A DNA stretch of 64,000 nucleotides, taken from contig OZ193909.1 of assembly GCA_964276515.1 (NCBI GenBank), positions 7,502,001-7,566,000 of the forward strand, read 5' to 3'. The notes under the pieces were generated by a model that saw nothing but the letters and a program-made list of their open reading frames with translations, did no database searches and was not told the DNA's origin. This DNA comes from Gordius albopunctatus (Eukaryota). Below, piece by piece: positions 1 through 46,817 of this stretch (position 1 is the stretch's first letter; every line of letters starts with the position of its first letter). The translations under genes and the position numbers were made by a program.

Positions 1-19
1 AAACAGGAGAAATTTTTAC

Positions 20-715
20 TTTTACATCCTTCACCCAAAGGGGAATATGTATTTGTTCTTTGCTGGGGATTATTTATTTGTAAGATTATTCACCCAATCT
101 ATGATACTCCAATACTAGTTTATTCACTCCAAAAATTATAATACAACTCCGGACACGGGATATAATTGAAGTATCCGGCAATAAGTGTTAACACCACAAT
201 AATAGCGCGGGAATATAATTTCTAGCGATTACAAGGGGGGGGGATTGGGTTTACAATGGAGAAATTTTCATTCTACGGGAGAAAATCCTATTTCTATGTT
301 TCTCTGCCTAGTATCGATTTTGCTGGGACTTATATAGGTTTCTTTTCTTGGCCTGTGCCTTTATCCTTGAAACTTCTTTTTTTTTGACCCATTTTACCGC
401 GCCAATTTCGTGATGAATGGCCCTTCACTTCCAAGGCTTTTCCACGTCCTTTGGAATCCTCAGCTGACAGTTCTAGGTTTCCCCTACCTTTCTTATGCCA
501 ATTCAATATTTATTACCAGGTGATGTGATACCCTTGCTTCCTTCTGCTACTTCTTTCAGGCCAAGTCTTAATTTACAGCTGTATCCTTGTACTATTTAAC
601 TACCAACCCAAATTTCGGTAACCTTCCCTTTCCCTTCGTTTATTTTTCATCTTATCACGTGCTCCTGCCTTATAAGGGCTGGTTCCCTTTTTAATATTTT
701 CTCATGGATATGACA
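20..715 (-). repeat. 3' LTR of element 1 (696 bp)
   Basis: Minus strand starts TGTCATATCC and ends GGATGTAAAA. Matches 6387-7022 except a 60-bp indel, 2 substitutions and 2 single-base indels that I could see. AATAAA at 119-124 (-). Confidence 0.95.
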
Positions 716-729
716 CCTCCCTTTTCTTC
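716..729 (-). promoter_or_regulatory. Polypurine tract (element 1)
   Basis: GAAGAAAAGGGAGG on the minus strand directly before the 3' LTR TG. Confidence 0.9.
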
Positions 730-913
730 AGGGATCACGTCTCGGGGGGGGGGGTCTTCTGGTTGAGTGTTCACGGTGGTTGGAACAAGTGGTTGGATAG
801 GTGGGTGGAACAGGTGGTTGGGTCAAGTGGTTGGGATCTTCCAATTTCGGTCGTTCGTTTTCTGGTCCTTGTTTAAGGTTTCCTGTTGATATTTTGTTCC
901 TTTCGATGGTCAT
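728..913 (-). CDS. Possible Pro-rich 61-aa accessory ORF ending at the PPT
   Basis: ATG ORF whose TGA overlaps the PPT, preceded by an acceptor-like ttttataatAG (928-927). No recognisable homology. Confidence 0.3.
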   Translation of the reverse strand: MTIERNKISTGNLKQGPENERPKLEDPNHLTQPPVPPTYPTTCSNHREHSTRRPPPPRRDP

Positions 914-1174
914 CGTAGTACGTCACCTATTATAAAATATAAATGCTGCCCGATCCCTAATACAGGATCAGTAGCCATATTCACCTCTACATCAACACCC
1001 TTCTACGTTATAACAACTTTTATTTCCAATCAACACACCAAATTTTCATATTGATATATGGGGAATAATTCTATAAATGACACAGCACACAGGGGATAAT
1101 TTATATCAATAACAGGTCAATCGGGTACATAAATTATATACATCATAGGGCAATTGTCCCTCAAGAGTGGCTTT

Positions 1175-1522
1175 TCACTCCTTCCCTTCTTCCAGTTTGA
1201 AACTCTTTAACCTTTCTCCAATTTCTTCCCACACGTTTGTTGGGGGTCTAGCGTTCGTCTGGGTTTCTACATCCGTCTGGGTCCCTACACTTTTAAAGTT
1301 GTCTTTCTTCTTCGCCTTCTTCACCTTTTCCCTCGTCCATTTCTTCTTAATCCCTCTCGTGGTACACTTTCTTCCCCTGCTCCTCCAGGGGCACGTCTGC
1401 CAGCGATGAGTTCCTCGCTCATCACATATATAACAAATTATTCCTTCGACCTGCACTTCCGACCCATAGTAACACTGCCACGTTCTATGGCTGTCATACT
1501 GCCAGCACACCTTACATTGGAG
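1175..1522 (-). CDS. Post-integrase accessory ORF with two CX2CX5HX4C zinc knuckles and a basic tract; probably exon 2 of a spliced mRNA
   Basis: LQCKVCWQYDSHRTWQC...CYICDERGTHRWQTC followed by a K/R-rich stretch; preceded by tattttattaCAG (AG at 1524-1523). Confidence 0.75.
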   Translation of the reverse strand, partial: LQCKVCWQYDSHRTWQCYYGSEVQVEGIICYICDERGTHRWQTCPWRSRGRKCTTRGIKKKWTREKVKKAKKKDNFKSVGTQTDVETQTNARPPTNVWEEIGERLKSFKLEEGKE

Positions 1523-1549
1523 CTGTAATAAAATAGATTTCCTTAGTCC

Positions 1550-4500
1550 CTACTGGTCTCGTCGCCGTAACTGGTCAATATGCCTCCAAAATTCCTTACC
1601 GTCTTCTATCGTCACTCGACACCTTACCCCTCCTTCTACGGCGATCACTAACCCCTTTACCCACTTACTCGGACCTTGATACATTTTAACCCAAATCGTA
1701 TCCCCTAATTTAAAGCGGGCTGCCCTCCCTAAATAACTCCTTCCCTCTACCCTTCTCAACTCGTCTAGCAATACCCTCCCTCGTCGTCCCAAGAATCTCG
1801 ATGACGGGGACTGGCCATCTCCTTCCTTCGCGTTATTATACATTAACTTCATCGGCCACTGCTCGGATGTCCCCCTTTTCTCCTTAAGAATCCACCCTTT
1901 AACTACTCCCACCATTCTTTCCACCTGCCCGTTGGAACTGGGATGATAGGGTGGGGTGATAATATGTTCTATCCCTTGACTTCCACAAAATTCTTTAAAC
2001 TTTACGCTACTAAATGCTGGACCTCCGTCGGACACTATCAGTTTTGGTAATCCATATCGCGCCAATAGTCCTTTCAATATCCTTATTACAATCCGGGTCG
2101 AACTTCCATTAACCTTTTCGTACTCTACCCATTTAGTACCGGCGTCCACCGCTATAAAATATACCTGCCCTAGACACTCGAAAAAATCTAGATGGACCCT
2201 ATCCCACGGATTTTGTGCCCTAGCCCATTGGCTACCTTTAATTTTGGGTGGCATCGCGGCTATGCTATTGCATGCCTCACATTGCCTGCAGAGATATTCG
2301 CTATCCTTTCTGATATCGGGCCACCAGATATATTCTCGCGCCCATCTCTTCATCTTTACCATACCCTGATGTCCTTTATGTAACTCATTTAACACCTCCT
2401 TCCTTAACACATCGGAGATGATTATCTGTAGACCTTTCATAATACATCCATCCACTATGCTTAATTGCCTTTTGATCTTTTGGTACTTTCTCAGGGCGAG
2501 GGGCCACTCGGCTTCTCCTCGAATACACTGGCCTAATTTCTTTAGTTCGATATCCCTCTCCGTTGCTTCCTTGACATCCATCCAGGAGATTGGTCCTCCG
2601 TCCGATATTCTTAAAATGTATGGTGCATCATTGTTATTATAGTTTTCTTCCATTGAGTCACTGTCTACTTTCTTGTCCTCTCCCTGGTCTTGGGTACCCA
2701 TTCGTGATAATGTATCGGCTATATAATTATCCTTGCCTCTTTTATATTTTATTTCCACTTCAAACGCTCCTATCATTACTAGCCATCTCTATAGTCGAGA
2801 AGATAACATAAGATCGTTGTTATCCTTCTTAAATAATGCTACTAAAGGTTTGTGATCCGTATATAACACAAAAGGTTTGCCTATAATATACTCCCAACAT
2901 TTATGGAGGCCATATACGACGGCTGAGGCTTCTTTCTCGATTACCGAATATCGCAATTCTGGATCTTTAAATTTTCGCGAAAAATACATAACTGGTTTTT
3001 CGTTTCCATCTTCGACCTGTAATAACGCCCCACCGACAGCTTCTTGCGAGGCGTCCACTACTATGTGAGTTTCCTTGCTACTATCAAAACAACTTAATAT
3101 TGGGGGTTTGGTTACACATTCCTTTAAATCCTGGAAACTCCTTTCCACTTCCTCATTCCATTTAAAAATTGTACTACCCTTAATCAGATCATATAAGAGC
3201 CTAGCTCTAGACGCAAAAAGTGGCACATATATATTGTAGTAATTTATTAATCCCAAAAAGGATTGCAGTTCTTTTTTAGAAGCTGGTGCACCAAGGTTAC
3301 TTACTGCCGCGATCTTACTCTCTATGGGCCTAATGGTACCATTTTCGATAATATGCCCCAAATATTCGACTGTATTTACATCAAAAATACACTTTTCTTT
3401 GGACAATCTTAATCCATTGTCATCAATAATTTGTAAAACTTGTCGTAATTTATAATCATGTTCCGCTTGTGTTTTTCCTGCCACTAATAGATCATCTATA
3501 TAATAGAAGACACCTTCTATTCCTCGAAATAATGAATTCATGGCCATCTAAAAGATTGGAGCCGAAATACTTAATCCAAAAGGTAATCTCAAGAACTTAA
3601 ATAGACCTAAATGTGTGTTTATTGCTAGGGCTTGACTCATCTCTTTTGATACCTTCAATTGTAGGTAAGCCGTTACAAAATCTAATTTTGAGAAGTGTTT
3701 ACATCCATTCAACTCCACCAAAATCTCCTCTAAACGCGGCAATGGAAATTTTAGACTCTCAATACAAGGATTTAGAGTGATACGAAAGTCCGCACACAAT
3801 CTCAACTTACCATTAGCCTTCCTTACCGGTACTAAGGGCGTTGCCCAATAACTAAAGGATACCGGTTTGGTTATTCCTTCTTTAACCCACTTGTTTAACT
3901 CCTCCTCTATTTCACTGCGCCATTCATAAGGTACTCTTCGAGCTGAACAAAATTTCGGGGTTACTCCTGGTTTTAATTTCATCGTGGCCTCATAATTTTT
4001 CAAACATCCAAACTCTTTATTGAAAATTCTTGAAAACTCTGCACGAATCTCCTCAAACTTCGCGCCTGTACTCTCTTGCAACATTAACTCCATGTTTATT
4101 AAATCACTACCCGAGGTCGGCTCAGTTCTTATTTTATTCAACCAGTCAACCTCAAAGTTTTGAATCCAGTCCCATCCTAAAATATTATTAACCCTTAGGT
4201 CCGATATATATAATATTAAATTTTTAACAACTCTATTTACGGTTATACGCACGTCGCACTGTCCTATTAATTTTATATTGTCATTATTAAATAGCTTCAC
4301 TTCCAATTTTGACTCTTTAAATAATCCACCGTTACAAATTCTAAACCAATCATCTCTATTAACTACAGTTATGGATGAACCGGTGTCAAATATAAAATTA
4401 AGTTGAATTTTGTTACAGAATATTTTTACGCGGGGAACTGGGTTATTTTTAATTTCCAGCATATTTATGGTAGGAATTTGCATTACTTCGTTTTTTATCG

Positions 4501-5332
4501 ATTTTTGTTTGATAAAATTCCCTAAAAGATCATGATTACGCGGCGATGTTACGTTAAACACTTCCCAATTTCTTTTAATGGGTATTAAAGTTAATTTACA
4601 TTTAGGATAGATAACAGGGGTGGTTTTTGTTGTTGTAAACTCGTTCAATTTTCCATAGTCATACCAATACTCATAAGTTAAAAATAAAAATCTTCGACAC
4701 ATATACTTGTAAAAATTACTCGTGTTGACCTTATCAATTTGCTCGCTACCCTTCCAAGGATTTAAATAAAGGTTCATTTTACTTTTGTTATATTTATTTA
4801 TTTCCATTAAATTATTTCTTCCCTTCCCTATTTTATTTTTGTACTGGGTTTTGCTTTTTGGTACTTTAAAAACGGTAGATTGCATAAATGATTCCAGATT
4901 TAAACGGTCGTAAGTATATTCGCCCAAAACACAAAAATTGGTATTTCCTAACCAATAAAATTTATTCCAGATTTCAAATCGCCAACACGCCCGTGAGTAC
5001 GATTTAATTATATACGTTGGTGGAGTATTAGGAATTTCGAATGGCTTAACCACGATTTCTCGGATCTCCTTTCCAATCGACCTATTCCCAAGATTTTTTA
5101 TCTTTCGACAAACCATCTCTTTATACTCACCCAAAATATATGAAAAATACCCTTTTTGAGTATCTTTATAAAATATACAATTATTTTGTATATTAAAAGT
5201 GTTTTTAGAAGAATAATATTTGTCCCGTTTAAGTGTGTTATGCCTCCCATGTATTTTTAAAGTACCAAACTGCACTATATTTATCATAATTTTAATAAAA
5301 AGTTGCAAACCCAAAAATAATTTGTTCAACAT
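1550..5332 (-). CDS. pol: Pol polyprotein: unknown N-terminal domain + protease + RT + RNase H + integrase, interrupted by two in-frame TAGs
   Basis: ORFs 3548-5332, 2789-3547 and 1550-2776 share one frame. FDTGS protease at ~4385, YIDD, VDAS RNase H, HHCC and D-D-E integrase. TAG at 3548-3550 and 2789-2791. Confidence 0.93.
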
Positions 5333-5691
5333 GTTAAAATTTCTATTAATCCTTTATTAATTTTTTACTATGACCCTTTTACTTTAAATTCTTCATGCTA
5401 ATGATACCTTTTATTATTTTTTTTTTTGATCAAAATCAAAGTTCAACACTAGTAGTCAAAAAATTTTATTTATACATATCAATATTAATATATTTTATGC
5501 AAATTGAACAATAAACATATTATGCAATAAAATCAATAAAATTTATTATAAAAATTGATATTTTATATTATATAACGAATTCGACATAGCAAGCGCAGGG
5601 GGGGGGGTTACGAACATTATGGGGAAGGTGCTAACATTATTTTTTATATTATTAGTAATTGCATATTATTATTAAAATAAAATATAAGTCC

Positions 5692-6027
5692 TTAGGGCTT
5701 ATATTTGGGAAATAACATTTTATTTTTGCAAAATTCAGCATAATGCCCAATATCTCCACAATTTACACATCGGGGAGTGACATAATTATTTTTACTTTGG
5801 TTTGGGGTATGTAATGATGGATTACTTAATTGCTTATTATTAAAATAACAATTACGCTGTAAATGATTTGTGTTTCCGCACGTAAAGCACCTCAATCTCT
5901 TGGTTAATTTATTAACTAACTGTCCAATTAAAATGCCCAATATCAAAATAACAAGGTAATCAATATATTCATATAAATCAACAAACAAATTTCTTAAATA
6001 AAGTCGATTATCGCTTTTACCAAACAT
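5692..6027 (-). CDS. 111-aa ORF: hydrophobic (TM-like) helix plus two CCHC zinc knuckles (nucleocapsid-like)
   Basis: YLVILILGILIGQLV followed by CFTCGNTNHLQRNC and CVNCGDIGHYAEFC; ATG start and TAA stop. Confidence 0.8.
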   Translation of the reverse strand: MFGKSDNRLYLRNLFVDLYEYIDYLVILILGILIGQLVNKLTKRLRCFTCGNTNHLQRNCYFNNKQLSNPSLHTPNQSKNNYVTPRCVNCGDIGHYAEFCKNKMLFPKYKP

Positions 6028-6106
6028 GCTAAAATATATTTTTTAAAATTAATAATTAATGAAATTAATAAAATCACGAAAAATATTATATAATAAATTA
6101 ACATAC

Positions 6107-6139
6107 CTTTTTATAACGCTGGTTTCCGTGTGTGTCCAT
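6107..6139 (-). CDS. Leader mini-exon MDTHGNQRYKK ending at a splice donor
   Basis: gtaATGG start, 11 codons, then AAG|GTATGT (GT at 6106-6105), phase 0. Confidence 0.6.
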
Positions 6140-6207
6140 TACGAATTTCGTCTGTTTTGATCGCGTCTGATTGCGGTTGAGTCTCACGGCTGTGTTTTGT
6201 CCTTTGG

Positions 6208-6379
6208 ATTGCGGCGGTTTTGATTGTGTTGAATCTTAAAGTCGACTTTTGTACGAGTATAACCGGGATTGCAGCGGTTTTGCTTGTGTATAATCTTAAG
6301 TCTTTTGTACGAGTATAACCGGAATTGCGGCGGTTTAGTGTATAATCTTAAGGTCGCCTTTTGTACGAGTATAACCGGG
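6208..6379. repeat. Three ~57-bp tandem repeats in the element 1 leader
   Basis: Unit attgcrgcggttt...aatcttaa...ttttgtacgagtataaccgg x3, abutting the PBS. Confidence 0.9.
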
Positions 6380-6385
6380 GCACCA
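6376..6385 (-). promoter_or_regulatory. Primer-binding site TGGTGCCCCG (elongator tRNA-Met-like)
   Basis: One base after the 5' LTR end; complementary to a ...CGGGGCACCA tRNA 3' end. tRNA identity is from recall. Confidence 0.8.
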
Positions 6386-6386
6386 C

Positions 6387-7022
6387 TTTTACATCCTTCA
6401 CCCAAAGGGGAATATGTATTTGTTCTTTGCTGGGGATTATTTATTTGTAAGATTATTCACCCAATCTATGATACTCCAATACTAGTTTATTCACTCCAAA
6501 AATTATAATACAACTCCGGACACGGGATATAATTGAAGTATCCGGCAATAAGTGTTAACACCACAATAATAGCGCGGGAATATAATTTCTAGCGATTACA
6601 AGGGGGGGGATTGGGTTTACAATGGAGAAATTTTCATTCTACGGGAGAAAATCCTATTTCTATGTTTCTCTGCCTAGTATCGATTTTGCTGGGACTTATA
6701 TAGGTTTCTTTTCTTGGCCTGTGCCTTTATCCTTGAAACTTCTTTTCTTTTTGACCCATTTTACCGCGCCAATTTCGTGATGAATGGCCCTTCACTTCCA
6801 AGGCTTTTCCACGTCCTTTGGAATCCTCAGCTGACAGTTCTAGGTTTCCCCTACCTTTCTTATGCCAATTCAATATTTATTACCAGGTGATGTGATACCC
6901 TTGCTTCCTTCTGCTACTTCTTTCAGGCCAAGTCTTAATTTATAGCTGTATTCTTGTACTATTTAACTACCAACCCAAATTTCGGCTGGTTCCCTTTTTA
7001 ATATTTTCTCATGGATATGACA
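6387..7022 (-). repeat. 5' LTR of element 1 (636 bp)
   Basis: Direct repeat of 20-715; TATATAA candidate at 6696-6702 (-). Confidence 0.95.
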
Positions 7023-7197
7023 ATGTTGTATAAATTTTTCTTAAATGTCGAGACGAGACGAGAATTCTCGCCAAGATGAGACGAGACCGAGATTTTTCTT
7101 GACCGAGACGAGACGAGATCGAGATTTTTATAATCGCTCCCGAAACGAGACGAGATTTTTGCTTTCGAGACCGAGACGAGATGAGATCGAAACACTA
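7023..7197. mobile_element. Right end of a non-autonomous hAT (GAGAC-repeat family) interrupted by element 1
   Basis: CGAGA/GAGAC arrays ending aaacacta. Bases 1-19 joined to 7023 onward align with 41629-41758. Confidence 0.85.
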
Positions 7198-7199
7198 CC

Positions 7200-7740
7200 C
7201 GGAGAGGACAAAATTTTTATTTTTTCTTAATTAAATTAATATATTGTTCTTGTTAATACCATTGATAATATGACTTTTTGACCTTCCGCTGGCTACTGAA
7301 CAATAAAAAAAATAACCATTGGCCAAATTGTGATTCGAAATTTTTTTTCGTTTTTGAATTGGTTAACATTGATAATTACCCTATGCCCTCCTCTAGAAGG
7401 GCCTATGCCTCTACTGATATGGGTCCCTGTGCCCCTACAAAGGCTTATGACTCTATTAATGTCGGTTCGAATCCCAGCGAATGTTCTGAATTGCTGGTTC
7501 GATACTCGGAGAGGGCAAAATTTTTATTTTTTTAAATTAAATTAATATATTGTTCTTGTTAATACCATTCATAATATGACTTTTTGGCCTTCCGCTGGCT
7601 ACTGACCAATGAAAAAATGACCATTGACCAAAATGTGAATCGAATTTTTTTTAGTTTTTTTTGACTCGTATGTATTTATAGACCGTCTCTTGGTACTTAC
7701 CAATAAAAAAAATGACCATTGGCTAAATAGTTTTTAAGTA
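7200..7740. repeat. Dispersed repeat with a ~140-bp internal duplication and a B-box-like GGTTCGAATCC; inverted relative at ~11510-11790
   Basis: 7201-7345 repeats at 7509-7650; gctggctactgaccaat...accattggccaaa recurs reverse-complemented near 11685-11720. Confidence 0.6.
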
Positions 7741-13930: not shown

Positions 13931-15322
13931 TCAATTATAGGAAAAGATAACTGATAATTTCATGCATATTGCTCTTATTTTGTGCCAGCAGAATTCAATA
14001 AGTTCGGACGCCTTCCTTCTAATAATTGAGTCGCAAAGTATGAAGACGTAGGCAGACGTGGTGTAATTAAGAAATTTAAATAAATAGGCGAATGTTTGTA
14101 ATGCAAACGTATTAGAATTAATAAAAGTGTCTCTCCACGCCCCACCATTTTTGCAAATGTATATAGTCAACGGTAACATGCATATAATAAAATGCAAACT
14201 TATAAAAAGTATCGTTGACGTGACCCTCTTTTCATTAAAACTAATAAGATTTTTATCTCTTTCTACATTCTTATTATAACCAATTGTTCTTACACATGGT
14301 CTTATATCATTTTTGACATCTGTGTAGTTTCTTGTAAAATTAGCATTTGGATGAATTATATTGGTAGGGCTATCAGAGTAGATAATAATTGATTTTTCTG
14401 CCGTTAGGTGAATATTTCGTCCACCCTGATCAATATTAGATAATATTTTAGTTGTTATTCTATCATTTTCTCTAAGATTAATGCCTGGACCTTTTATCAA
14501 TGGATTTACGATTGCCATTTTTCGCTTTAGAATTTTTAGATATTTATAGATTACCGATATATTGAGTATGAAGGTTAATATTAAAGGTAAGAGAAACATA
14601 ATTAAATTAACTCCTACTTCATAAAAAGGGGTCCACTTATACGATGATTGTTTCAAACAATATATATATGACAGTTTTGGACGTTTCCCCATTATACTAA
14701 ACGTGTAATTTTCAGGTTTTAATAATTTCTTTTGAGTTTTCACATATATAAAATGAGATGATATGTTTTCAGAAGAATAATTCAAGAAAGTGCAAATATC
14801 ATACACATTTATGGATGAATTCGAGTAGACTTGAAACGCCACTATTTGATAAATGAGCATATATGGTAGTGCGGATATAAATGATATAAACATTATAACA
14901 AGCAAATATATTATTATAGTTTTTCGGTTTGCCATAAATTGTGAATGATAGTATACAGGCCAAGTGATGGCAATAAAACGATCAGCAGCCATGACAACTT
15001 TGATAAGATTACTGATATGACAAAATGTGTCTTGTATAGCCCAAAAATAATTAGCGATGAAAGTGATATAAGCTTTGTGAGTTGTAATTGTTAAAATATT
15101 TTGAGAATGGAAGAACACGGGCCAGACCAGCATTGATAAAGAAATACTAAGGTCGGCTGTGGCAAGAATTTGTAAATATATATACATCTTTGGCTTACTG
15201 ATATTACAAAGGTAAGCACATGCAAAATACAGAACATTTCCTACAATTCCAATACAACTTAAGATCGATCCAAATCCGGTATAAATTATGCGGTCTGACA
15301 GGGCTCTAAATTCTGGAGGCAT
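13931..15322 (-). CDS. Class A peptide GPCR, FMRFamide-receptor-like, divergent; single large coding exon, start uncertain
   Basis: Seven hydrophobic segments; GIVGN (TM1), LATAD (TM2), ADRF..I.WP (TM3), FLLP (TM5), FIICMLP (TM6). The ATG at 15322 follows an acceptor-like ttttctacag, so an upstream exon is possible. Confidence 0.88.
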   Translation of the reverse strand: MPPEFRALSDRIIYTGFGSILSCIGIVGNVLYFACAYLCNISKPKMYIYLQILATADLSISLSMLVWPVFFHSQNILTITTHKAYITFIANYFWAIQDTFCHISNLIKVVMAADRFIAITWPVYYHSQFMANRKTIIIYLLVIMFISFISALPYMLIYQIVAFQVYSNSSINVYDICTFLNYSSENISSHFIYVKTQKKLLKPENYTFSIMGKRPKLSYIYCLKQSSYKWTPFYEVGVNLIMFLLPLILTFILNISVIYKYLKILKRKMAIVNPLIKGPGINLRENDRITTKILSNIDQGGRNIHLTAEKSIIIYSDSPTNIIHPNANFTRNYTDVKNDIRPCVRTIGYNKNVERDKNLISFNEKRVTSTILFISLHFIICMLPLTIYICKNGGAWRDTFINSNTFALQTFAYLFKFLNYTTSAYVFILCDSIIRRKASELIEFCWHKIRAICMKLSVIFSYN

Positions 15323-17035
15323 CTGTAGAAAATTTATATCGCCTAGCAATTATGACTTGAAGTTAATTTTTAAAAAATTAAATAAATAGGATATATATTC
15401 TCTAGCCTTTTAATAACATTTTTAGCTGTGTTGTTAATGGATATCCAGCAGTGATTTTTTAGGTGATTTTGTCAACACCACTGTTCAATCAATTGATTTT
15501 TCTCAATTTTAAAATAAAATGAGCCAGGAGAGTAGACAGGATTGCCTAAAGGAAGGGGATTTCCAAAAGATTTTATAAATAATACTATTAAACAAAAACT
15601 TATCAAGATTATATGCATTAGTAGAGGTGGCAGGAGTCCAATTAAATGGGGGGGGGGGGTAAATTTTGCGTCAAAAGATTTTGATAAAACAAAAATTAAT
15701 ATAAGCATATAAATGCAATATATACGATAAGTTTTTGGTAACAAAATGAATTAATAATATCTTCAGGGACGCAAATCGCAAAGAGCCCCTCCCATTTCTG
15801 TTTATGCTAATTAGGGCTATGATCGTTTTAACTATAAATATGGAGCCTTTTACGTTAATTTGCCCACCATTACCAAAAATTGTCCGGTCCCAGACCGTTA
15901 CTGAAATTATAGGCCCGAACCCGCCCGCATATTTTTTGCAAAGCATGGTCCCAGCCTACACCCTTCCCAGAAAAAAATTCTTATAGACTCTGTCGCTTCT
16001 TAAACATTTTTGTCAATATTAAAACAATCATTTATTTATAAGTTAAAAATGTTCAATAATCACGTTAAAAAAATCAGTCTCAAACAGTCTTTTGTTTCTT
16101 CCAACAAGAAACGCGGTGTTAAATTTTCACTAGTAGCACTTGATGCTGCATAAAACCATTTATGATAGTTGAAACTCCATACAAGGTTAATTTTATATAA
16201 TTACATATACCTATTTTTGTCAATTTTTCATGATCCTCTTATTAAAAAACTCTTGGAATCCACTTATTTAAAAATCACAAGTTTTAGGAATAAATAACCA
16301 AAAAAAATTAATATTTATTAAATTATATTGTGAACTTAAATAATAATAAAACATCATAAAACCCATAAATTCCATAGCAATTAATATACCATTTTTTGTA
16401 TATTAAAATATGAAAGCAAAAAGGTTATTAAATTATTCTGTTGGACGGAGTCGCCCCTCCTTAAAGCTAGGCCCCTCCCGAGCCCGTTTTATTACCATAA
16501 CGCTCGTCCAAGCCCGGCCCGCAATTTTTAACAAAAACCCCATCCATCCCCGCATTTAGCAATGATAGCTGTGTTTGCTTTAATAAAGTTAAAGTTAGCT
16601 CTATCATGGCCATTAAAAAGCAATTAGCACTCACAATTTCTAAAGGAAATAGATTGTAAAGTATTGTTGTAGGTAATTAAATAATTTTTTTTTAAATCTT
16701 TTAAAGTAATTTAAATAGTGGTAAGAATTAAATGTTTTAAAGTAATTTAATATCGTCTGCGGGAGAAGCCTAATTAGTGGTTGGTTTAAGGCACTAATTA
16801 GAAACAGATGAATATGTTAAAGGCATTCCTCATGCAAATTGAAATGTGCATTACATCGACCTGTTAAATATATATATTAAATACTTCAATAAAAATCGCA
16901 AATATAAAATTGGTAGCAAGAGATTCTCAAACATAAAACTTAATTCCCACATATAAAAAGTATGTTTAAAAATAAGCATGCACGAATGAAATATGCAAAA
17001 GGCTTTGCAAAATTTTCATTTACATTTATTTGTAA

Positions 17036-19943: not shown

Positions 19944-22900
19944 TGTAATATATAGCGTAATTTGTAATATCAGTTATATATATATATCATGTGGATAAAA
20001 ATATATGATATGTTTTGAATTAGAATAAACATTCCTAATTAGTAAAGTGGCGCGGTCCCCAAACAAAAATGGAAGGAATACCTCAATATAAGGCAGGTGA
20101 TAACATAAATACATATTTGTTCACTCTTGATAAATAACATATTTGAGTCTAAAAATGTCCTAAAAGAAACTAGAACCAAAACTATCTTGGAATTACTGAT
20201 AAACTTTGTTTATCCATAGAATATATCCTCATTTTAATATGTAGATTTGATCAAATTGATTAAGAAGGTATTCCAAACGAAATCCATTATATTTCAAGCA
20301 AGACTAAACTTTATCAGATGCGTAAAACAAGTAGATGAATCGTTAATTGAATATGTTTCTAGATTGAAAGCTTCTGTAGAATGTTGTCATTTTAAATCGT
20401 TGGATGAACGATTGCGTGATCAATTTTTAAATGGATTACATAATCCACAATTAGAGAGAGATGTTAGAGCAAGATGGCCGGATGCTCTTAAGCATACTGG
20501 ACTAGAAGTGACATTTAATTATATTTATAATTTAGCTGAATCAATGCATCTTGCGAATAATTTTAAAAGCTTGTGGAAATCGTACAATACCAATTAATGG
20601 AGAAACTTTACTCAAGGTATGTTGCAATAATAAAATAATGAAATTACCAGCCGTTGTGACAACTTCGGAGTAAGAACCTATTTTTGGTTTAAATTGGATA
20701 GAAGCTTTTAACCTAAAACTTCCTCATCAAGTTAAGATTAATGCTATAGAAAAAAACCTCAAAATATAGAAGAAGAATTGGTTGAAAAGTATACCAATGT
20801 GTTCATTGATGGCATTGGCTGTATTAAAGATTATGAGGTAAATCTTTTTGTAAAAGAAGAAACCAAAGACATGGCATTTCCTGCACAAAGAGTTCCTTTT
20901 CCTTTAAGGAATAAAGTTAAAGAGAAAATTAAAAGATTATTGGACGAAGATATAATTGAACATGTTGATCCTGCAACAACACCAATAACATGGGCAACTC
21001 CAATAGTAAATGTATAAAAATCAAATAATTCCATTAGAATCTGCTGCGATTTTTGAGTTACTATCAATCCCTTCCTAACTTTAAACAACCATCTACTTCC
21101 GACATTTGACGATTTAATTCTGAAGATCGCAGGAGGGCAGAAATATAGTGTAATTGACTTACGTGATGCCTATCTTCAGATAAAGGTCGAAGAAAAGTCG
21201 CGACATTATCTCACTATCGCAACACATTTAGGTTATTATCGATATAAACGTCTTCCATTTGGACTTTCGATAGCACCAAATTTATTCCAACGTTATATGG
21301 AGGAATAATTAGATGGGATTCCCCATACCGGCGTACTTCTAGACGATATCATAGTTACAGGGGTAAATAAAAATGACCACCTGCAAAATCTGAACGAAGT
21401 ACTAAAGAGGGTACAGGACGCTGGTCTAAAAGCAAAGAAATAAAAGGTTAAATTTTTCCAAAATTCAGTTAAATACTTTGGACATGTGATCGATGCAACA
21501 GGGATCCACCCGACTCAAGAGCGAGTGGAAGCCATTGTTAATTTCAAATAACCACAAAACAAAAAAGAACTAAGTTCCTTTTTAGGACTAATTAATTATC
21601 AGGAAAGGTTCATCCCAATGCTACACGAAAAATGCGCGCCCTTGTATGCATTGACGGGGTCATCATAGGTTGGAAATGGACGACTAAAGAGCAGAAGATT
21701 TTTAACGATGTTAAACTGATGCTTTCAACGTCCAATACTTTGGTACCGTATTCAACCTCATTGCCGTCATACCTAGCGGTAGATGTCTCTGAAACTGTTA
21801 AAGGTGCTGTACTATCACACTTTATATGCAGACGGGTCTGAAAGAGCTATTGCGTACGCATGCAGGACGTTAAGCGAGTCCGAAAAACTATACTCTACAA
21901 TTGATCGGGAACCGCGAGCCATTGTGTTCGGTGTTCAAAAATTCAATACGTACGTGGTCGAAAATTTGTATTGATGACGGATCACAAACCTCTAGAAAGA
22001 TTATTCGGAAATCATCGGGATTTACCGAAAGTGATCCATAATAGATTAATTCGATGGGCTTTATTTTTAAATGGATATCAATACGACATAAAATACCGAT
22101 CAGGAAAGACCAATCAATGTGCTGATGCATTGTCGAGACTGCCAGGTCCAAAATACTTTGAGACGGATCAGATCAATCACGTAGGACTACTCATGTTAGA
22201 TGAATTAAAGTTAGATTATGAAATGCTAAAAACATCAATTAAACAAGATCCTTTTTGTCGTGAATTAATTTTAGCGATCAACCGAGAATGGCGGTTGGAT
22301 TTAGAAAAATGCCGTTTTGACATGAAAACGTACTACAATCGAAGGGAGGAACTGTCATTCAAAGATGGATTATTATTGCATAGAAATCGGTTAATAATAC
22401 CGAGGAACTTACAAAAGTTGGTTTTAAAAATATTACACCAAGGACACCCCGGTATTACAGGAATGCTTAATTTAGCCCGATATTATGTTTGGTGGCCGGA
22501 AATGGACAAGAATATTGATTTGTTTGTAAAGGAATGTGACTGTTGTCAAGAAGGCCAACAAGCCGAACAAGAAGTTCCCTTATATTCTTGGTCCGTACCT
22601 TACCGTCCTTGGGATCCAGTCCACATAGATATTGCTGGATCTGTCGAAGGAAATTATTGGTTGGTTTTAATTGATGCATTATCGAAATGGGTGGAGGTAG
22701 CCACACTATCGTCGATTAAAGGATCACAAATTGTGAGGCAGTTACGAAATTGATTTTGCAAGTTCGGTACTCCCTTGCAAATAGTATCAGACAATGGACC
22801 ACAATTTGTCGATGAAGAATTCACAAAATTTTGTGACAACAACAACATTAAGCACGTAACATCAACTCCATACCACCCCAAAACAAATGAATCGGCTGAG

Positions 22901-23601
22901 AGAATGATTCGAACGCTAAAATCAAGATACTGGGCAGCAAGAAAATCAGGGGGAGAGAAAGAATTATGCCTTCAACAAATAATTATGACATACAGGAATA
23001 AACCTCAGACAATCACGGGTAAAGCTCCGGCGCAATTGTTGTTGGGAAGAAGAGTAAGGAGAGGGTTGGACCTTATTCGACCAGATCCAAAAGAAAAGTG
23101 GAAGGAGAGATTAACTAAACAAAAGAGCTACCATTACCGAAAAGCGTGTTATAGGGAATTTAATGTAGGAGATCCAGTATGGGGCGAAATGAAATTAAAG
23201 CGGGCTGGTACAAAGGATTTATCATAGAACGTAAAGGCCCATATTCATATAATGTTCGCACTGATAAAAGAATTAAAAGGAAACACGCGGATCAGTTAAA
23301 ATTTAGGATGAAATCCCAGTTCGTCGAAACTAACGATACTAGTCTGCAACCGAATGTTGAAAAGGTTGCAAGTCCGAATACTAGTCTGGAAACGAATGTT
23401 GAAAAAGTTGCAAGTCCGATTACGTTAAGACGATCGACTAGAACGTCAAAACCACCTGTACGATTCTACGAGGAAGTTCACGTTTAAAATAGGGAGAAAT
23501 GTAATATATAGCGTAATTTGTATTATCAGTTATATATATACCATGTGGATAAAAATATATAATATGTTTTGAATCAGAATAAACATTTCCTAATTAGTAA
23601 A
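19944..23601 (+). mobile_element. Degenerate Mag-like Ty3/Gypsy LTR retrotransposon with short LTRs
   Basis: LTRs 19944-20046 and 23500-23601; 5-bp TSD ATAAG; PBS TGGCGCGGTC at 20048; PPT before 23500. Gag capsid-like segment (ESLIEYVSRLK...LRDQFLNG), RT (LLDD), RH and IN with stops and frameshifts; knuckles and most of the protease missing near 20600. Confidence 0.96.
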
Positions 23602-27433: not shown

Positions 27434-30400
27434 TTAAACCATAGTTTCATGTTGTTTGCCTTCCTCAAATATTCTTAGTTGATGCAATTTAAAGGCCTTT
27501 TCATTTATAAAAGATTGAGAACGATTCTTTTTGCCCGATGTTTTAATCCTAAAATTGTTCCGACGTCTATTTTGACGTGTTCTTTTGGGAATTCCATTGG
27601 TTCCTTGCTTAATCGGCACATAATGTACGAAAGGACACCACCTGAAGGCACTTTTAAATCCTTGACGAAATCTAAATTAATGTTAAATCACTTTAAGGCT
27701 AATATTTGTTTAAATTAAATGACATATTCATAAATAATATATTAATGATTACTTAATGTTTAGCCAGTAATAAATCAACGGATTATACATGGAATTACTC
27801 ATGCCAATCCAGTAAAGTATTAAAAATATATGTTGAGTCGCTTTGTGATTTGTAACATAAGGATATATTTTTTGAATCAAAAAGTAGGTTTGGTAGGGTA
27901 AATAGCACAATGCAAATATCAATGTAACAAGGATCATCATTTTCACAACCTAATTAAAAAAAATTGTTTATGTTCTTATATTTTATTAAATGTCTAATGT
28001 CTTACCCTTCTCTTGGACTTGATATTTGATAGTTGCTTTTCTGTTTCTTCCCCTATTAACTCGCTCCACCATAGACTGAGGCCAATTTTGATATAAACTA
28101 TGGCTAGAATTATAACAGGCACGAAGTAAGTTGAGATCATTAGAAACAATTCGTACCTTAAAGATGCAAGTATAAAACAAAAAACATTACTTCCTTCATA
28201 AATAATTCATTTTAATTTAAAGTAACGGTCAGGTATTTAAAAATAAATAATCTTTTATAGCTGAAACTTATAAAGATTAATTATTAATTACTCTATTAAT
28301 AAAATATCAGTTGTCTGAAATAGTGGCTTAAACTATATTATTCGATTTTAATGAGTATTAATGTCTATTTATATAATTCATTTATTATAAAAATCATTTT
28401 ATAAATAAATTGTATTTGTTCTTTAGAAGTCAAAACGCAGACTATTCCTTTTTATCAAACGTGTTTAAAACCAGATTTTAAATTTTATATTAGGATTTTA
28501 ATTTATGCACCAACACAAATGAGTGATCAGAATGTATTATTTATATTTTAACTTAAAAAAAATTAAATTTCCTGCATATAATGAGTTACTAAATTAATTT
28601 AAACCATTGATAACTTAAAAGATGTTTCATCAATTAATCAAGCACACCTAAATGTATTATTGTCTCATATAAACGCCTTATATATTTTAACGAGATTTTA
28701 GCCAATTATCTTTACATGACTTATTTTTTATTTAAATAATTTTAAATACTGCTTACAAGTCAGTGATTAAAAGTGACTAAAATTTAATAATATCATAAAC
28801 CGTTTGTTCTTCATGCTTTTTTAATGATTACCCTAAGGATGCGGATCCATTTAGTTCTAGGTAACACACAGTTCTTTTAGAATTGTCTTGATATACCCAC
28901 GTGTAAGTTTTGGAATATAGAATGTATGGTAATGATATAATAAACGAAACCGTCCATATAATGACTATGGTGATTACACCTTTTTTGAGGCTAAGTTTTT
29001 TGTGCAACACGTGAACTAATGCAAAATACCTATAAATAAAATTATTTTGTTTTAGATAGTATAAAATGAATTCGTAGACGTTCATCTTATTATATTAATT
29101 TTTTAATTTATACATCTTTACATATATATATGCCTTATATTCTTATTTATAAATTTTGTTCAAAGCATTATACTATATTCGACTTATAATTATTCAAAGG
29201 GAAATACTAGGATAAGCATCATTTTTTTGTTTACGCTTTATAGAAATTATGGTATTATTCCGATAAATCCATGGTATACAGCATTTTAATTCTTTATATT
29301 ATAGTTTTGCTATCTCCAGATAACTCCCTAACCATAAAAATATTTTTTCCTATAGCTGTTTGTAACATTTAGTGGTCAGCTCCTTCAAGTAGGTTCTCCA
29401 TGTATTCCTGCACTTACACCAGCTTCGCTTTAGCTCGTACCTTCTCAAGTCCATATCAATTTTATACTTCCATGTCAATTAGGCCTCCCTCTCTTTCGCT
29501 TACCTTCGACTTGCACTTTCTTGATATGATTTGCCAAGTGACTTTTCTCGCGTCTCTCCAAATGGTCATACCATCTCAATCTTCTTACCACCAACTTTCT
29601 CTGAATCGGAACTACATTTAGTTTATCCCTTATGTCTTGATTCTTTATATGGTCTTTTTTGCTTATTCTCATGATCCATCTCAACATTCGCATCTCCATT
29701 GTAGCAAAGCTTTGGTCCTATTTTGCCTTAATTGCCCAGATTTCAGCTCTATACAATACCGTGGGTACAATAACGGTGCGTCCTTTCAATTTGGGTGGTA
29801 TGTGCTTGTCACATAGGAAACCACTCAACTCCCTGAATTTTAGCCAGCCTTCGTTTATTCTTGCCTTAATTTCGTTTTCCACACTTCCATCACATTGTAC
29901 CCTAGAACCAAGATATTTTAATTCTTTCCTGCTGCTTAAACACCAGTCATCGATTTGCAGGTATGCTTCTTTGTATTCATTCCCCGAATCCAAGCATACA
30001 TATTCCGTTTTATCTCGGTTGACCCTAAGGCCTTTGCTTTCAATTCGTTCCATCCACACTTTCACCTGCTCTGCTAATTCCACGTTTGAGCCTGCGCAAA
30101 GGACGATATCATCCGCAAAGAGCATTGCCCAAAGTGATTCGCGTTTCAGGTTCTTCGTTATCGAATCAATTATTCCTATGAAGAGCAATGAATTTAAGGG
30201 CGATCCTTGATGCGCACCGACATTTAGACTGAATCCCGTACTTTGGTTTTTGCGTTTCTATACATATCCTTTATTAACATTATATAAGCCTCGGGTACAG
30301 CATTGGAACTCAGGCTATCCCATATCAACTGCCTTGGCACTTTATCGAAAGCTTTCTCAAGATCGATAAAATACATATGAAGATCCTTTTGTTTTTCCTT

Positions 30401-33400
30401 ATATACTTCCATAAGTCTCCAAAGACCATGTATTGCATCTGAAGTCGACTTTCTAGGCATGGACCCAAATTTTTGTTCATCTATTAATATTATTTTTTAA
30501 AGTCTAGCTTCTATAACTTTTTCCCAGACCTTCATTACGTGACTTGTTAACTTTATCCCTCGATAGTTGTTGCATTCTTGTACATCTCCCTTCATTTTAT
30601 AGATAGGTATAACATAACATAGCTTTCCCTCCACTCATCAGGCATCATACCACTTGCAAGTATTTTGTTAAACAGCTTTGCAAGTAGATGTACACCCAAG
30701 GGTCCTAGCATTTTGAAAGCTTCCATAGGTTTATTATCAGGTCCTGCCGCTCTACCAATGTTGATATTTTTAAGCACCTGGTCAACATCTTCTTCTGTCA
30801 CTTCTAACTCTGGGTCATATTTATAGTTGTTGCTATCGCAGTAGTCCAAAAACCCATTTTCATTGTTTAATAATTCTTTATAGTATTCTTCCCAACGATC
30901 TATGATTTGATGGTCCAGAGTTAGAGTGATGCCATCTTTGCTCTTTATGGTTTTCACGTTTACTACATCCTTTGAGTTCCTTGGCCTGGTCTTTGCGATT
31001 TTGTAGATCATTCTATTCAAATTATCGTAGACCTCTGTTTTAGCCTTGGCTACACAACGCTTTGCCTCATTTTTAGCTTTCACATATGCTAATAGTGTTT
31101 CCTCATTTCTGTTACCTGACCATAATTTGTAAAGCTTTCTTTTCAATTTGACCAGGCGTTGCACGTCTTCGTTCAACTACCATGTCTCCTTATCTTTTTG
31201 TAAACCTGGTTTACCTTCTCCTAGAACACACCTCGTTACTAATCTTACCGTGTCAGCTATGTTATTCCACATATAGTTAGCATTCTGCTGATCATCTATT
31301 TGCAGCCGTTCAACTATTTGATCATTGTAAATATCTTTCAATTTTGGTAGCCGGAACCATTTGATTTTCCCATTTAATCTCTTCGATTTTTGTGTTTTTG
31401 CCTTGGAGATGGTATAGTCCATCACAACAAGTCTATACTGGGCTGCAATAATCTCGTACATTCTTTAATTCCTTTCTTGATATTAGGAAAAAGTCCATCT
31501 GCGAAGATCGATTTCCACTTTTGTACGTTATTAGGGGATTTACATTCTTTTTGAAGAAGGTATTTGTGATAGCCAAATCAAATGCAACGGTTATTTTCAA
31601 TATTTCGTCGCCCTCATCGTTTCTCCCTCCATATCCATTCCCACCATGGTACCGTTCAAATCCTTCTCTTGTTTTGCCTACGTGACTATTCATATCTGCT
31701 CCAATTATAACTATCTCGGCTCCGGTTATCATTCGCAACATTTCGTCTAATTCTTCCCATTCCTCATTTTTTCATCTGTGCATCCTGTTTGCGGAGCATA
31801 TCCGGAAACTACATTAATCATTTAACCTTCTATGCATAGTTTCAACATCATGAGTCGCCCACTTTTTCTTTGTACCTCAATGACTTTATCTTCCAGGTGT
31901 GAGGCTAGTATCATTGCCACGCTATTTTTATTCGTTTCAAGGCCATTGAAGTAAAGTTTATAGCCTTCAACTATCATCCTTGCTTTTACGCCTTTCCATC
32001 TTGTTTCCTGTATACACGCTATATCGTCTTGTCGCTTGCTGAGGGTGTCACCAACTTATCGGCATTTTGCAGTCATCGTTCCAACATTTAGCGAGCCTAC
32101 TCTCAATCTCGTCCTTAGCAAACTTGTTTCTTTAACTACGTCCGTTTGCGGAAGATGTAGTGACCCTCGTTGACTTTCACATGATACGGGCGCCTGCCAT
32201 GCGTGTCGTTTACGGAGGACGCCCTAGTGCTTTCATTACTTTCATTATTACAAACTTTAATAGCACTTGGATCAAGGGTGACGCTCGGCTATCCAGCCCT
32301 GACAGCCGTGTTGACGATGTGAGATATTTTTAAACTTTGAAATAAATGCCGGAGGTGGAATCGAACCGGCAACCTCGCGCTTCAAAGTCTAAACTTATAC
32401 CCACTACACCACCACGCCCCACTCCATTACCATAAAAATAAGTTAGCTTAATTACATCAAATTTGAATGCATAGCTGCTGCAAGATATAGATCAATTATG
32501 CAGATAATACATATGCCAACTATATAATTAACTTTTTAGCCATGTAACAATTACTATAAAATATTTTTACGAGGGTAAAAATTCCAAAATTCATTATATC
32601 AAATAGTAAATAACTTTTAAAAAATGATAATAAAATTATAGTTGGCAAATCTTTGAATATATAAAGCATGGGTAGAAACAATAAACTGAATTATGCTGAT
32701 ATGTAAAAAGTATCATAATATTTCTTAAAAAGGACATGAATTGTCTTAATAATCAATCATAAATTCGCAATAGGTCTCAAGATGTCAATATATATATATA
32801 TATATATTGAATTGATTTTGATTTATAGGATAAATTAATGGTAGATATTTGAATAGCTTCCTTGAAATGTGAAAAAAATATAATGTTAACAAAGGTAGTC
32901 ATTTTGGCTTTAAAACTGACTAAAGATGAACAGATAAGTCGCAAAAGGATAACGATAAAAAACCATTATGACGTTATACATAGGTCGGGTGAATATATTT
33001 AAGGAATAAAATATTGTTAAAGATCATTGTATAACGAAAAAAATCTGTGTGTTTAATTAAAGTAGTACAAGTCGTTCATAAAAAACATTAAAAATTTAAT
33101 TAATTTAAGAAGTGAGTGAAGATAAAATAAACCCAATTAATGAGCTTTTCAAAATATTTACATTAAATTTTGTTAAAATAATTCATTTAATTAAATTATT
33201 GTTTTTTAAAGAAAATGAGGAATATTTTAATTTGTAGACTTTACAATTTGATTTATTCCTTAAAACTAATGATATTTTTGAAGCATTCGTTAAATGCATT
33301 AGCTTAATTGTAAAGCGTTCCACACCGATTTTATTGTGGTAAATTTGAGTTAATACAATATATCACAAATAAAACGCAGGTCTACAAAAAAACCATTTAG

Positions 33401-45400: not shown

Positions 45401-46817
45401 CTATAAAATAATAATAAATTTAAAAGTATATAGTGAGTAAGCTTCAATATTAATTTATGGCAATTGGATTACAATAATTATTGGACATTAACTCATTGTC
45501 ATTAGAGCGTAAGAAAATTAAGTCGAACAAAACATAATCCCTGAGCTTCAGTAAATGCAGTCGACTGGAATAATGTGATAAAAAAGCGATCCACAGGGCG
45601 AAATTAAGTCCACTTTCTTTATTTCTAGTCATTTTACGAGATGTTTAAATAGACCTCAAGAAAATTAACTGTAATAAATTAATTTATCTATGCTATTTCA
45701 TCAATATATTCCATCCATATTTGAATGATTTTGAGTCCATTAATTTTTTGAATTTGAGTGCCATAAAAATAATGCTTTTTGTTTTGATATATTAACAAAT
45801 CTTTTAAATAAATCCTCAATATAAAAGCATGTTACACATGAGTTTATTTTAATTTTGAAACGTGTAAATCGTTTAATTAATTTTAAAAAGTCATAAAAAT
45901 GGTGAAGTTTAATTTAAAACACTTAAATATTATTGTTGTTGGTGTAATTTATTTAATTGCTAAATCAAACAACTTTGTACCCGCTTCTATTTTGAGTTTT
46001 ATTTTTATAATGATCGCACTTTGAAACATTTTTAAAATAATGTAAAATGCATTAAGGATATAAAATTAGTTTTGGTATTTAATAGATCACTTAAGCTAAA
46101 TGGTTTTAGTACATTCATTTGCCTAGATATGTTAAAAATGCAAGAAATTGCTTCAATCTTAGATGGACAATCTCGTTGTTGGCTCAACTGTACATGTATA
46201 GAATCTATTTTTCTAATTTACCTGTCGATACTGATAGCCACCAGGGTAAAAACACTAGAGGTGAGAGTGACGTTCGAAACGAAATTACTAACCACGCAGT
46301 ATACTTGTCCGAAAGGCCAATGACTATTCATCATGTAAATGAAGTTAAAAAATATGTTGAGGGCTGCCACCAGGGTATCCGAAACACTCATGTTCACGAT
46401 GAAATAATTTGTGGCCGACCTCATTTGCCGGCGGCCCAGAATAATCCAAATGACCAAAGAATTTCCAACGGTCGAAACTATGATCAAGGCGCCAAAGATT
46501 ATGATGTAAACCATTTGCATATACCACGGTTGAGCAAAAATATTTTTGTTCATAGTAATTTCTTGGTTCAGGGTTAGCAAGGTACCCGGCCCCGAAGAGG
46601 AGCGGTTTAGAGCCCATGCCGAATGGCATACAAGCTTGGAACCCTCTGCTTCACTACCAACCCCCTCTATCAGGCTATAATTGTGATAGGTGCTGTCGTA
46701 AGTGTTATTTCCGACGCATGGTAAAACTGGAGACGTAAAATTTTTGACCGAAGCAGGAGTTATGGACGAATTTAGTAGTAATTCTTGAAGAAAAAGAATA
46801 CCCAGTTTAGCGATTGC
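27434..46817 (-). CDS. Tachykinin-like peptide receptor (class A GPCR), 5 coding exons
   Basis: Exons 46817-46222, 29029-28832, 28156-28006, 27949-27753 and 27671-27434 join in frame through GT-AG introns. Motifs: MRSATNYFIVN, WPFG..YC, SIDRY, LWWSELIGE..SKRRVVKMM, CYLPY, MSNSMYNPLIY, FRQGFK..FRWCPF. 5' start unresolved. Confidence 0.93.
29343..32420 (-). mobile_element. Full-length but decayed RTE-clade LINE (APE + RT) in intron 1 of the tachykinin receptor
   Basis: RVGSLNVGTMT, IIGADMNSHVG, FIDLEKAFDKV, MLFADD, KYLG, RLRWY.H, RGRP motifs with stops and frameshifts; 20-bp TSD (18/20) at 29323-29342 and 32421-32440. Confidence 0.95.
32345..32420 (-). other. tRNA-derived head (A and B boxes) at the 5' end of the RTE; not a functional tRNA
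   Basis: GGGGCGTGGTGGTGTAGTGG...GACTTTGAA...GGTTCGATTCC; acceptor and anticodon stems do not pair. Confidence 0.8.
33850..35412 (+). repeat. Two dispersed copies (~33850-33980, ~35284-35412) of an unclassified repeat
   Basis: Shared tatcagaattattggtc.gattgcg.gat..aatcacaaa core and upstream similarity. Confidence 0.7.
36233..37738 (+). mobile_element. Deleted hAT transposon with a transposase C-terminal dimerisation-domain remnant
   Basis: Imperfect TIR CAGAGACCAGA/TCTGACCTCTA; TSD atcgttat/atggttat; CGGGC arrays. 37132-37272 reads YPKLARFKKILFAIPATSAASERSFSIAGRLIEERCTRLSPEIVDDM. Confidence 0.93.
36615..36783. mobile_element. hAT-type MITE nested in the hAT element
   Basis: catgggcgtag...ctacgcccttg; perfect TSD TAAACTGC. 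Confidence 0.92.
37747..37912. mobile_element. hAT-type MITE (same family)
   Basis: catgtgcgtagccag...ctggctacgcctatg; flanks atggttat/tatgttat. Confidence 0.88.
40219..41758. mobile_element. Non-autonomous hAT (GAGAC-repeat family)
   Basis: TAGTG...CACTA ends; perfect TSD AAAATCAT; inverted GTCTC/GAGAC subterminal arrays. Confidence 0.93.
42682..42785. mobile_element. hAT-type MITE
   Basis: catgggtgcagcc...ggctacgcccatg; flanks taaaaggc/taaaaaaggc. Confidence 0.8.
43964..45106 (+). mobile_element. Deleted hAT transposon with a BED-finger remnant
   Basis: 20-bp TIR TAGAGGTGTGCAYGGATCAA; perfect TSD ATGAGAAT; CGGAT arrays. ~44520-44665 reads GKSQIWSYF...GYLICKKC..IYKY...GSSHLLHHKC across a frameshift. 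Confidence 0.94.

Follow-up and report, generated by a model that had tools for sequence, protein, structure and literature searches.

In this study, we describe a Ty3/gypsy long terminal repeat (LTR) retrotransposon that combines ordinary enzymes with a non-canonical gag region. It lies on the minus strand, from 7022 to 19, of a 64,000-nucleotide stretch of Gordius albopunctatus DNA (GenBank assembly GCA_964276515.1, contig OZ193909.1, positions 7,502,001 to 7,566,000 of the forward strand; this whole stretch is called the window, and its positions are used throughout). The copy genuinely belongs to an abundant gypsy-type family; it inserted recently but is dead. Part of the account in PMC2577118 presents a capsid-nucleocapsid gag as the core that LTR retroelements and retroviruses have in common, and describes the gags of the Mag clade as having this capsid (CA)-nucleocapsid (NC) layout, usually with two CCHC arrays. 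Ahead of the protease of the Gordius element we find a small open reading frame (ORF), ORF1, which carries two CCHC knuckles, and the start of a second one, ORF2, in which an orphan domain of about 300 residues is fused to the enzymes of pol. The reading we prefer, for which we judge the case evenly balanced, is that the usual capsid-nucleocapsid gag has been replaced by this split set of a small ORF1 protein and an orphan domain ahead of the protease.

The element has the direct LTRs and the order of protease (PR), reverse transcriptase (RT), RNase H and integrase (IN) of Ty3/gypsy elements. A CA-then-NC gag ahead of the protease was found neither by Pfam nor by a lineage profile, hhalign or comparison with the PDB; knuckles occur in the separate ORF1 only, and the two adjacent CCHC arrays of a Mag/K02A2.6-like CA-NC gag are missing. 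An original prediction, made from the letters of the window alone, had called the element Mag-like, and by similarity its pol is indeed closest to K02A2.6-like/Mag-type members: 1620 proteins match it at E<=1e-20, and the best 120 of these are nearly all K02A2.6-like where named. The closest relative among 5.8 billion clusters is a 968-residue protein of the horsehair worm Gordionus (47% identity over 827 residues), followed by K02A2.6-like polyproteins at approximately 29-37%. Over 841 residues, elements of sea urchin, fishes and a pseudoscorpion share with the Gordius element the PR-RT-RNase H-IN order and about 29-37% of their sequence, and Gordionus 47%. These relatives encode gag and pol in a single ORF, where the CA core and a pair of adjacent knuckles stand about 300 residues ahead of the protease motif. 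In contrast, the Gordius element lacks the CA core, has its knuckles 27 residues apart in a 111-residue ORF of their own and places the orphan domain before the protease. The number of knuckles, two, is itself usual for Mag-clade nucleocapsids as far as part of PMC2577118 describes them.

Because Pfam is a poor judge in this lineage, most full-length gag-pol relatives showing no Pfam gag family, a gag profile was built from the part ahead of the protease in 81 relatives. Even relatives with a clear capsid core are mostly without a Pfam gag family in precomputed lists, and a missing Pfam gag match means little for the Gordius element. The profile detects the CA core in 92 of 120 relatives, including 11 outside the training set, and the relatives in which it finds none are mostly short, N-terminally incomplete models of approximately 940-1240 residues. 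As a positive control it also recovers the core, at 20238-20594 (E 2.9e-14), in the decayed neighbouring element at 19944-23601, for which the usual capsid motif had been predicted. Run against 1369 open segments in six frames, it finds no CA core in any frame of the Gordius element, and its only significant match there is to the ORF1 knuckles, which fit the knuckle part of the profile with E 1.3e-5 in the six-frame search of the window. The lineage's capsid core is thus, at the level of sequence, absent from the element, as had been predicted.

ORF1 (5692..6027, minus strand; ORF 6027-5695, stop TAA 5694-5692) encodes 111 residues with a candidate hydrophobic helix at residues 20-40, followed by the two knuckles. 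Both knuckles match Pfam zf-CCHC (E 1e-6), the hydrophobic segment reaches a Kyte-Doolittle value of 1.89 over 19 residues, and none of 20000 shuffles stayed open over the same length; the small ORF that had been proposed is borne out, with two knuckles and a hydrophobic, candidate membrane segment. The orphan domain (approximately 305 residues, 4418..5332, minus strand) begins with the ORF2 ATG at 5332, is in frame with the protease and starts with a hydrophobic helix, the segment scoring 1.71 and exceeding the classical threshold of 1.6. It is open beyond chance in AT-rich DNA (0/20000 shuffles), and its purine bias at codon position 1 (0.61) is pol-like (0.62-0.66), the spacer between ORF1 and ORF2 having 0.54.

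The orphan domain has no match in Pfam, no homologue among polyprotein-length proteins in a word-indexed search and no usable match in the ESM Atlas. Comparison with the PDB gave only chance antibody matches (E 0.17 or worse), and 265 pattern matches in metagenome contigs yielded no confirmed one. Against the gag profile of the relatives nothing appeared even at E<=100, and hhalign gave a probability of 0.1%. Within the 64,000 nucleotides of the window the orphan domain, ORF1 and the frame behind pol described below match only themselves. The expectation of a domain of about 295 residues unlike anything known, fused ahead of PR-RT-RNase H-IN, agrees with these results at about 300 residues, no relative being present in the libraries searched. 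The sole match in a full HMMER scan of 1.84 billion representatives was rejected as a tandem-repeat artefact.

Contigs of four coded runs were aligned to the element, the runs X1 and X2 representing organism A and X3 organism B. Organism A contains the family in highly repeated form, and organism B has related copies. X1 contigs cover the start of ORF2 with the end of the spacer (5094-5418) and ORF1 (5754-6043), with two differences each. X3 contigs run across the orphan domain (4260-4543 and 4398-4625) and cover ORF1 too; each difference that is fixed in X3 within the domain is seen in 4-8 contigs. Since contigs of both organisms cover ORF1 and the orphan domain, the 5' region is not a private accident, and the data support the view that it is a family trait. 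Loss or replacement of gag in this copy alone, named beforehand as an outcome that would speak against an unusual lineage, is not supported, the contigs of A and B carrying the same 5' region. Organism B contigs give little depth across the spacer (5452-5688) and the leader repeats (6163-6399), and an uncovered part there is no evidence.

The 5' LTR (6385..7022, 638 bp, minus strand, TG start at 7022) is a direct repeat of the 3' LTR (18..715, 698 bp). The repeat core of 601 bp (18-618 versus 6385-6985) is 99.3% identical, and a further stretch of 39 bp (677-715 versus 6984-7022) is 100% identical. A global alignment leaves two substitutions, two one-base indels and one indel of approximately 58 bp, in line with the few changes noted originally. 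The sole large difference is the 58-bp segment 619-676, which is present in the 3' LTR (as 676-619 in the direction of the element) and not in the 5' LTR. On reading the sequence, a polypurine tract, GAAGAAAAGGGAGG, directly abuts the 3' LTR (716..729, minus strand), and a TGG-initiated stretch resembling a primer-binding site (PBS), TGGTGCCCCGGTT, follows immediately after the 5' LTR (6373..6385, minus strand). No tRNA gene was found in the window; of the two priming sites claimed, the polypurine tract stands and the PBS stands only as PBS-like. Reading of the flanks also revealed no clean target-site duplication.

Several further observations concern the leader and the surroundings. Three tandem repeats of 56 bp occupy the leader (6206..6379, minus strand; TRF period 56, 3.0 copies, 82% matches), and each copies the second half of the PBS-like stretch. 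The flanks, 1-18 and 7023-7100, are very highly repeated host sequence, with a word depth of 30,000-170,000 at 6874-7100, and X1 and X2 contigs connect position 18 to 7026 without the element, resembling the uninterrupted form of the host repeat. Just outside the element, at 7211-7731, lie direct repeats of approximately 100 bp with a spacing of 306 bp. Rfam gave no matches at E<=1 on 1-7100. Along the minus strand from 7022 to 1175 the content of guanine plus cytosine (GC) climbs from 0.29-0.30 in ORF1, orphan domain and protease to 0.34-0.39 in RT and RNase H, reaching 0.46-0.47 in integrase and in the tail behind it; such a steady rise may be a hint that the 5' third of the element arose by recombination.

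Pol occupies a single frame from 5353 to 1175 (minus strand), broken by three TAGs, along which Pfam recovers a weak protease, RVT_1, RNase H, Integrase_H2C2 and rve in this order. The aspartic protease (4160..4414, minus strand) has a DTGSS motif and weak matches to Pol_BBD (8.5e-4) and Asp_protease_2 (0.016). The reverse transcriptase (3347..3823, minus strand; RVT_1 E 8.5e-21) contains an in-frame TAG at 3550-3548, and a second TAG, at 2791-2789, lies at the end of the RNase H (2765..3160, minus strand; RT_RNaseH_2 1.3e-28, RT_RNaseH 3.9e-28). The third TAG (1552-1550) sits after the integrase, whose H2C2 part, catalytic core and C-terminal part span 1553..2410 (minus strand; Integrase_H2C2 2.4e-12, rve 1.4e-9). 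The alignment to the Gordionus protein ends three residues before this TAG and the protein itself two residues past the alignment end. Because the closest relative ends beside the same point, TAG 1552-1550 is probably the natural pol stop.

In the alignment to the Gordionus protein both internal TAGs face an identical, ordinary residue, as would be expected of a one-step nonsense mutation and of a reassigned codon alike. At the first, every other contig has a sense codon (X1 3/3, X2 3/3, X3 11/11; 17/17 together); the second is present also in one X2 contig (2634-2816, 0 differences). Between 2416 and 3550 the window is contradicted at seven places by the whole, or no less than 98%, of the depth in X1 and X2; one of these is the stop, five alter the residue and one is silent, and such private changes fit neutral decay of a dead copy. 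Stopped twice inside pol and altered at several residues by private changes, the copy is dead and yields no pol product, and since the first TAG is private to it, the stops reflect decay and not a change of code. The element had been described as young and its pol as full: the insertion is recent and the domain order complete, but the copy is nonetheless dead and its pol is interrupted by the TAGs at 3550-3548 and 2791-2789.

Behind the pol stop the same frame continues as a tail of 124 codons (1175..1549, minus strand; stop TGA 1177-1175), in which a basic stretch accompanies two C-X2-C-X5-H-X4-C motifs. Its ORF (1549-1178) exceeds chance, only 8 of 20000 shuffles being open. It has no Pfam family, the spacing of its knuckles is non-canonical, and in the six-frame search its resemblance to the knuckle region of the gag profile (E 0.12) is not significant. 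A pol tail of approximately 100 residues after the same integrase motif is seen in many relatives. Readthrough of the murine leukaemia virus type involves an in-frame UAG followed by an open frame. The TAG and open tail resemble this arrangement, but they stand at the end of pol and not at the gag/pol junction, and the RNA 3' of the TAG folds no better than shuffles (z 0.90). The length of a proline-rich ORF at 922-731 is what chance would give, 2361 of 20000 shuffles being open, and Pfam finds nothing in it. The two accessory ORFs of the original prediction thus fared differently: the length of the second double-knuckle ORF exceeds chance, but it is the continuation of the pol frame past TAG 1552-1550 and not a separate ORF, and the proline-rich ORF does not exceed chance at all.

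Upstream, a 78-nucleotide segment (6029..6106, minus strand; GTATGT...TTTTAG) with a GC content of 9%, between neighbours of 43% and 29%, looks like an intron of an AT-rich host and is regarded as a putative one. For comparison with its GTATGT, the splice donor of a host receptor gene in the window reads AG/GTAAAT. A leader ATG (6139) precedes the segment, and the ORF1 ATG lies one nucleotide after it. When the segment is excised the leader frame ends three codons later, the ORF1 ATG being one base past the acceptor. Because excision fails to join the leader ATG in frame, the leader mini-exon is not fused to ORF1; of the mini-exon proposed, the intron-like segment at 6106-6029 is present and the in-frame joining is not. 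Ten bases ahead of the ORF2 ATG lies an AG that is a candidate second acceptor for the same donor and could give rise to separate ORF1 and ORF2 messages. The spliced layout likened to complex retroviruses, drawn from such splice-like motifs, is accordingly a candidate one. Between the ORF1 stop and the first ORF2 ATG lies an AT-rich spacer (5333..5691, minus strand) of 359 nucleotides and 21% GC, corresponding to the gap of approximately 360 bp seen before, with stops in every frame and an RNA structure no better than that of shuffles (z 0.63).

If the split set does replace gag, the parts might work together as follows. ORF1, with its hydrophobic helix and knuckles, would be an abundant RNA-binding chaperone of nucleocapsid type. 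The orphan domain, whose position and approximate length match the gag of the single-ORF relatives, would be a much-diverged structural, capsid-equivalent part set free by the protease. ORF2 would be reached through splicing from the leader donor or through reinitiation after ORF1, which would provide much ORF1 protein and little pol, and the pair of hydrophobic helices may cause the proteins to self-associate or to bind membranes. A bolder version holds that the lineage dropped the universal capsid-nucleocapsid gag and that two new proteins, a 111-residue helix-plus-knuckles RNA binder and a 300-residue domain cleaved from pol, build or package the replication complex, their expression being retrovirus-like, through alternative splicing of leader RNAs, and their assembly possibly taking place at a membrane; in this full form we think the proposal unlikely, if conceivable.

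Several points weigh against replacement of gag by the split set. Knuckles in a separate ORF upstream of the capsid-like part are the reverse of every canonical gag. A single-sequence AlphaFold model of the orphan domain has a pLDDT of 33 and is confident only for residues 1-25, the hydrophobic N-terminal helix. Splicing, predicted from sequence motifs, and expression are both putative, and no excess of RNA structure over shuffles is seen in either the spacer or the region 3' of the pol stop. Among the differences listed as fixed in X3, only four fall in the domain (two silent, two conservative) and one in ORF1, too few to speak for purifying selection. Moreover, subfamilies with a normal gag are possible, the contigs being short and a further 4544 pieces, 545 loose ends and 35 joints existing beyond those listed.

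Other explanations account for parts of the same evidence. The family could be non-autonomous for particles, having lost CA and receiving Gag in trans from a canonical family, with the orphan domain as a spacer or an adaptor that docks on helper particles. Dependence on Gag in trans is known for other LTR elements, no frame contains a CA core, and a canonical family with one (20238-20594) is found in the same window; yet a full pol and a domain of 305 codons have been kept in AT-rich DNA where none of 20000 shuffles stays open, coverage of the domain by contigs of a second organism is unexpected for a mere spacer, and the only neighbour compared has a pol just 30% identical, no helper family being recognised. 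We consider a helper unlikely. Hydrophobic segments above the classical threshold in both proteins (1.89 and 1.71) and an N-terminal helix, the one segment modelled with confidence, would also suit an element without any capsid, in which ORF1 coats the RNA as a ribonucleoprotein, like the knuckle-bearing ORF1 of non-LTR elements, and the orphan domain serves membrane targeting or host interaction; part of PMC5408684 documents varied extra ORFs, small transmembrane ones included, in LTR elements of rotifers. These membrane helices are candidates by a hydropathy threshold, however, and if a PR-RT-IN polyprotein began with a signal-like helix, the enzymes would be sent to the wrong place. We regard a capsid-less element as quite doubtful, and to our knowledge no LTR element replicates without a capsid shell.

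Accident and recoding are largely excluded. That the odd 5' region is unrelated DNA that replaced gag in one copy, or a set of small ORFs open by chance, would accord with the decayed state of the copy and with the chance-level proline-rich ORF, but the contigs of organism A over the ORF2 start and ORF1 (two differences each), those of organism B over both ORFs, and the shuffles of ORF1 and the orphan domain make it very improbable. The proposition that the host reads TAG as sense, making pol and tail one intact frame of 1392 codons, draws on the fact that all three stops of the frame are TAG and that opposite both internal ones the closest relative has an identical, ordinary residue. It was rejected, and we hold it to be extremely improbable: the standard sense codon at the first TAG in 17/17 other contigs of three runs marks a private mutation, the protein of the closest relative ends beside the third TAG, and the in-frame stop of the neighbouring element is TGA.

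LTR elements of bdelloid rotifers (Rodriguez, Kenefick, Arkhipova 2017, PMC5408684), so far as part of that paper describes them, are likewise modular and bear lineage-specific extra ORFs, including small transmembrane ones. They differ in that a normal gag ORF1 and pol ORF2 are retained and ORF3 is added downstream, whereas in the Gordius element the gag region itself is replaced. In a surface look at the literature on nematomorph or hairworm transposons, and on K02A2.6 together with gypsy, no comparable family was found. Non-LTR retrotransposons encode a small upstream ORF1 protein in which a self-association helix and CCHC knuckles serve to coat the element RNA. This offers a possible working likeness for ORF1 of the Gordius element; no sequence relation is shown, and the element is of LTR type with an integrase.

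The remainder of the window contains features of other kinds. The neighbouring gypsy-type element (19944-23601, plus strand, notably 20238-20594 and 21905-23227) is heavily decayed, showing frameshifts as well as a TGA in frame at 22751-22753, and its pol is the one only 30% identical to that of the element studied here. Two rhodopsin-family receptor ORFs, which mark the host as an animal, match 7tm_1, at 13931-15349 (minus strand, E 6e-17) and 46218-46817 (minus strand, E 7e-23), and the latter ends at the canonical AG/GTAAAT donor just past the DR of the DRY motif. ORFs resembling fragments of a non-LTR reverse transcriptase were recognised by eye from the ORF list at 29718-31176 (minus strand).

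If a high-copy family, present in at least two organisms, does encode no capsid-fold protein or has moved its knuckles to an upstream gene, it would reveal the extent to which a retroelement can have its structural module rebuilt, and it would offer a natural system for asking what the minimal requirements of a particle are. If the orphan domain is a much-diverged capsid, the family would represent ordinary fast evolution of gag combined with an unusual gene order.

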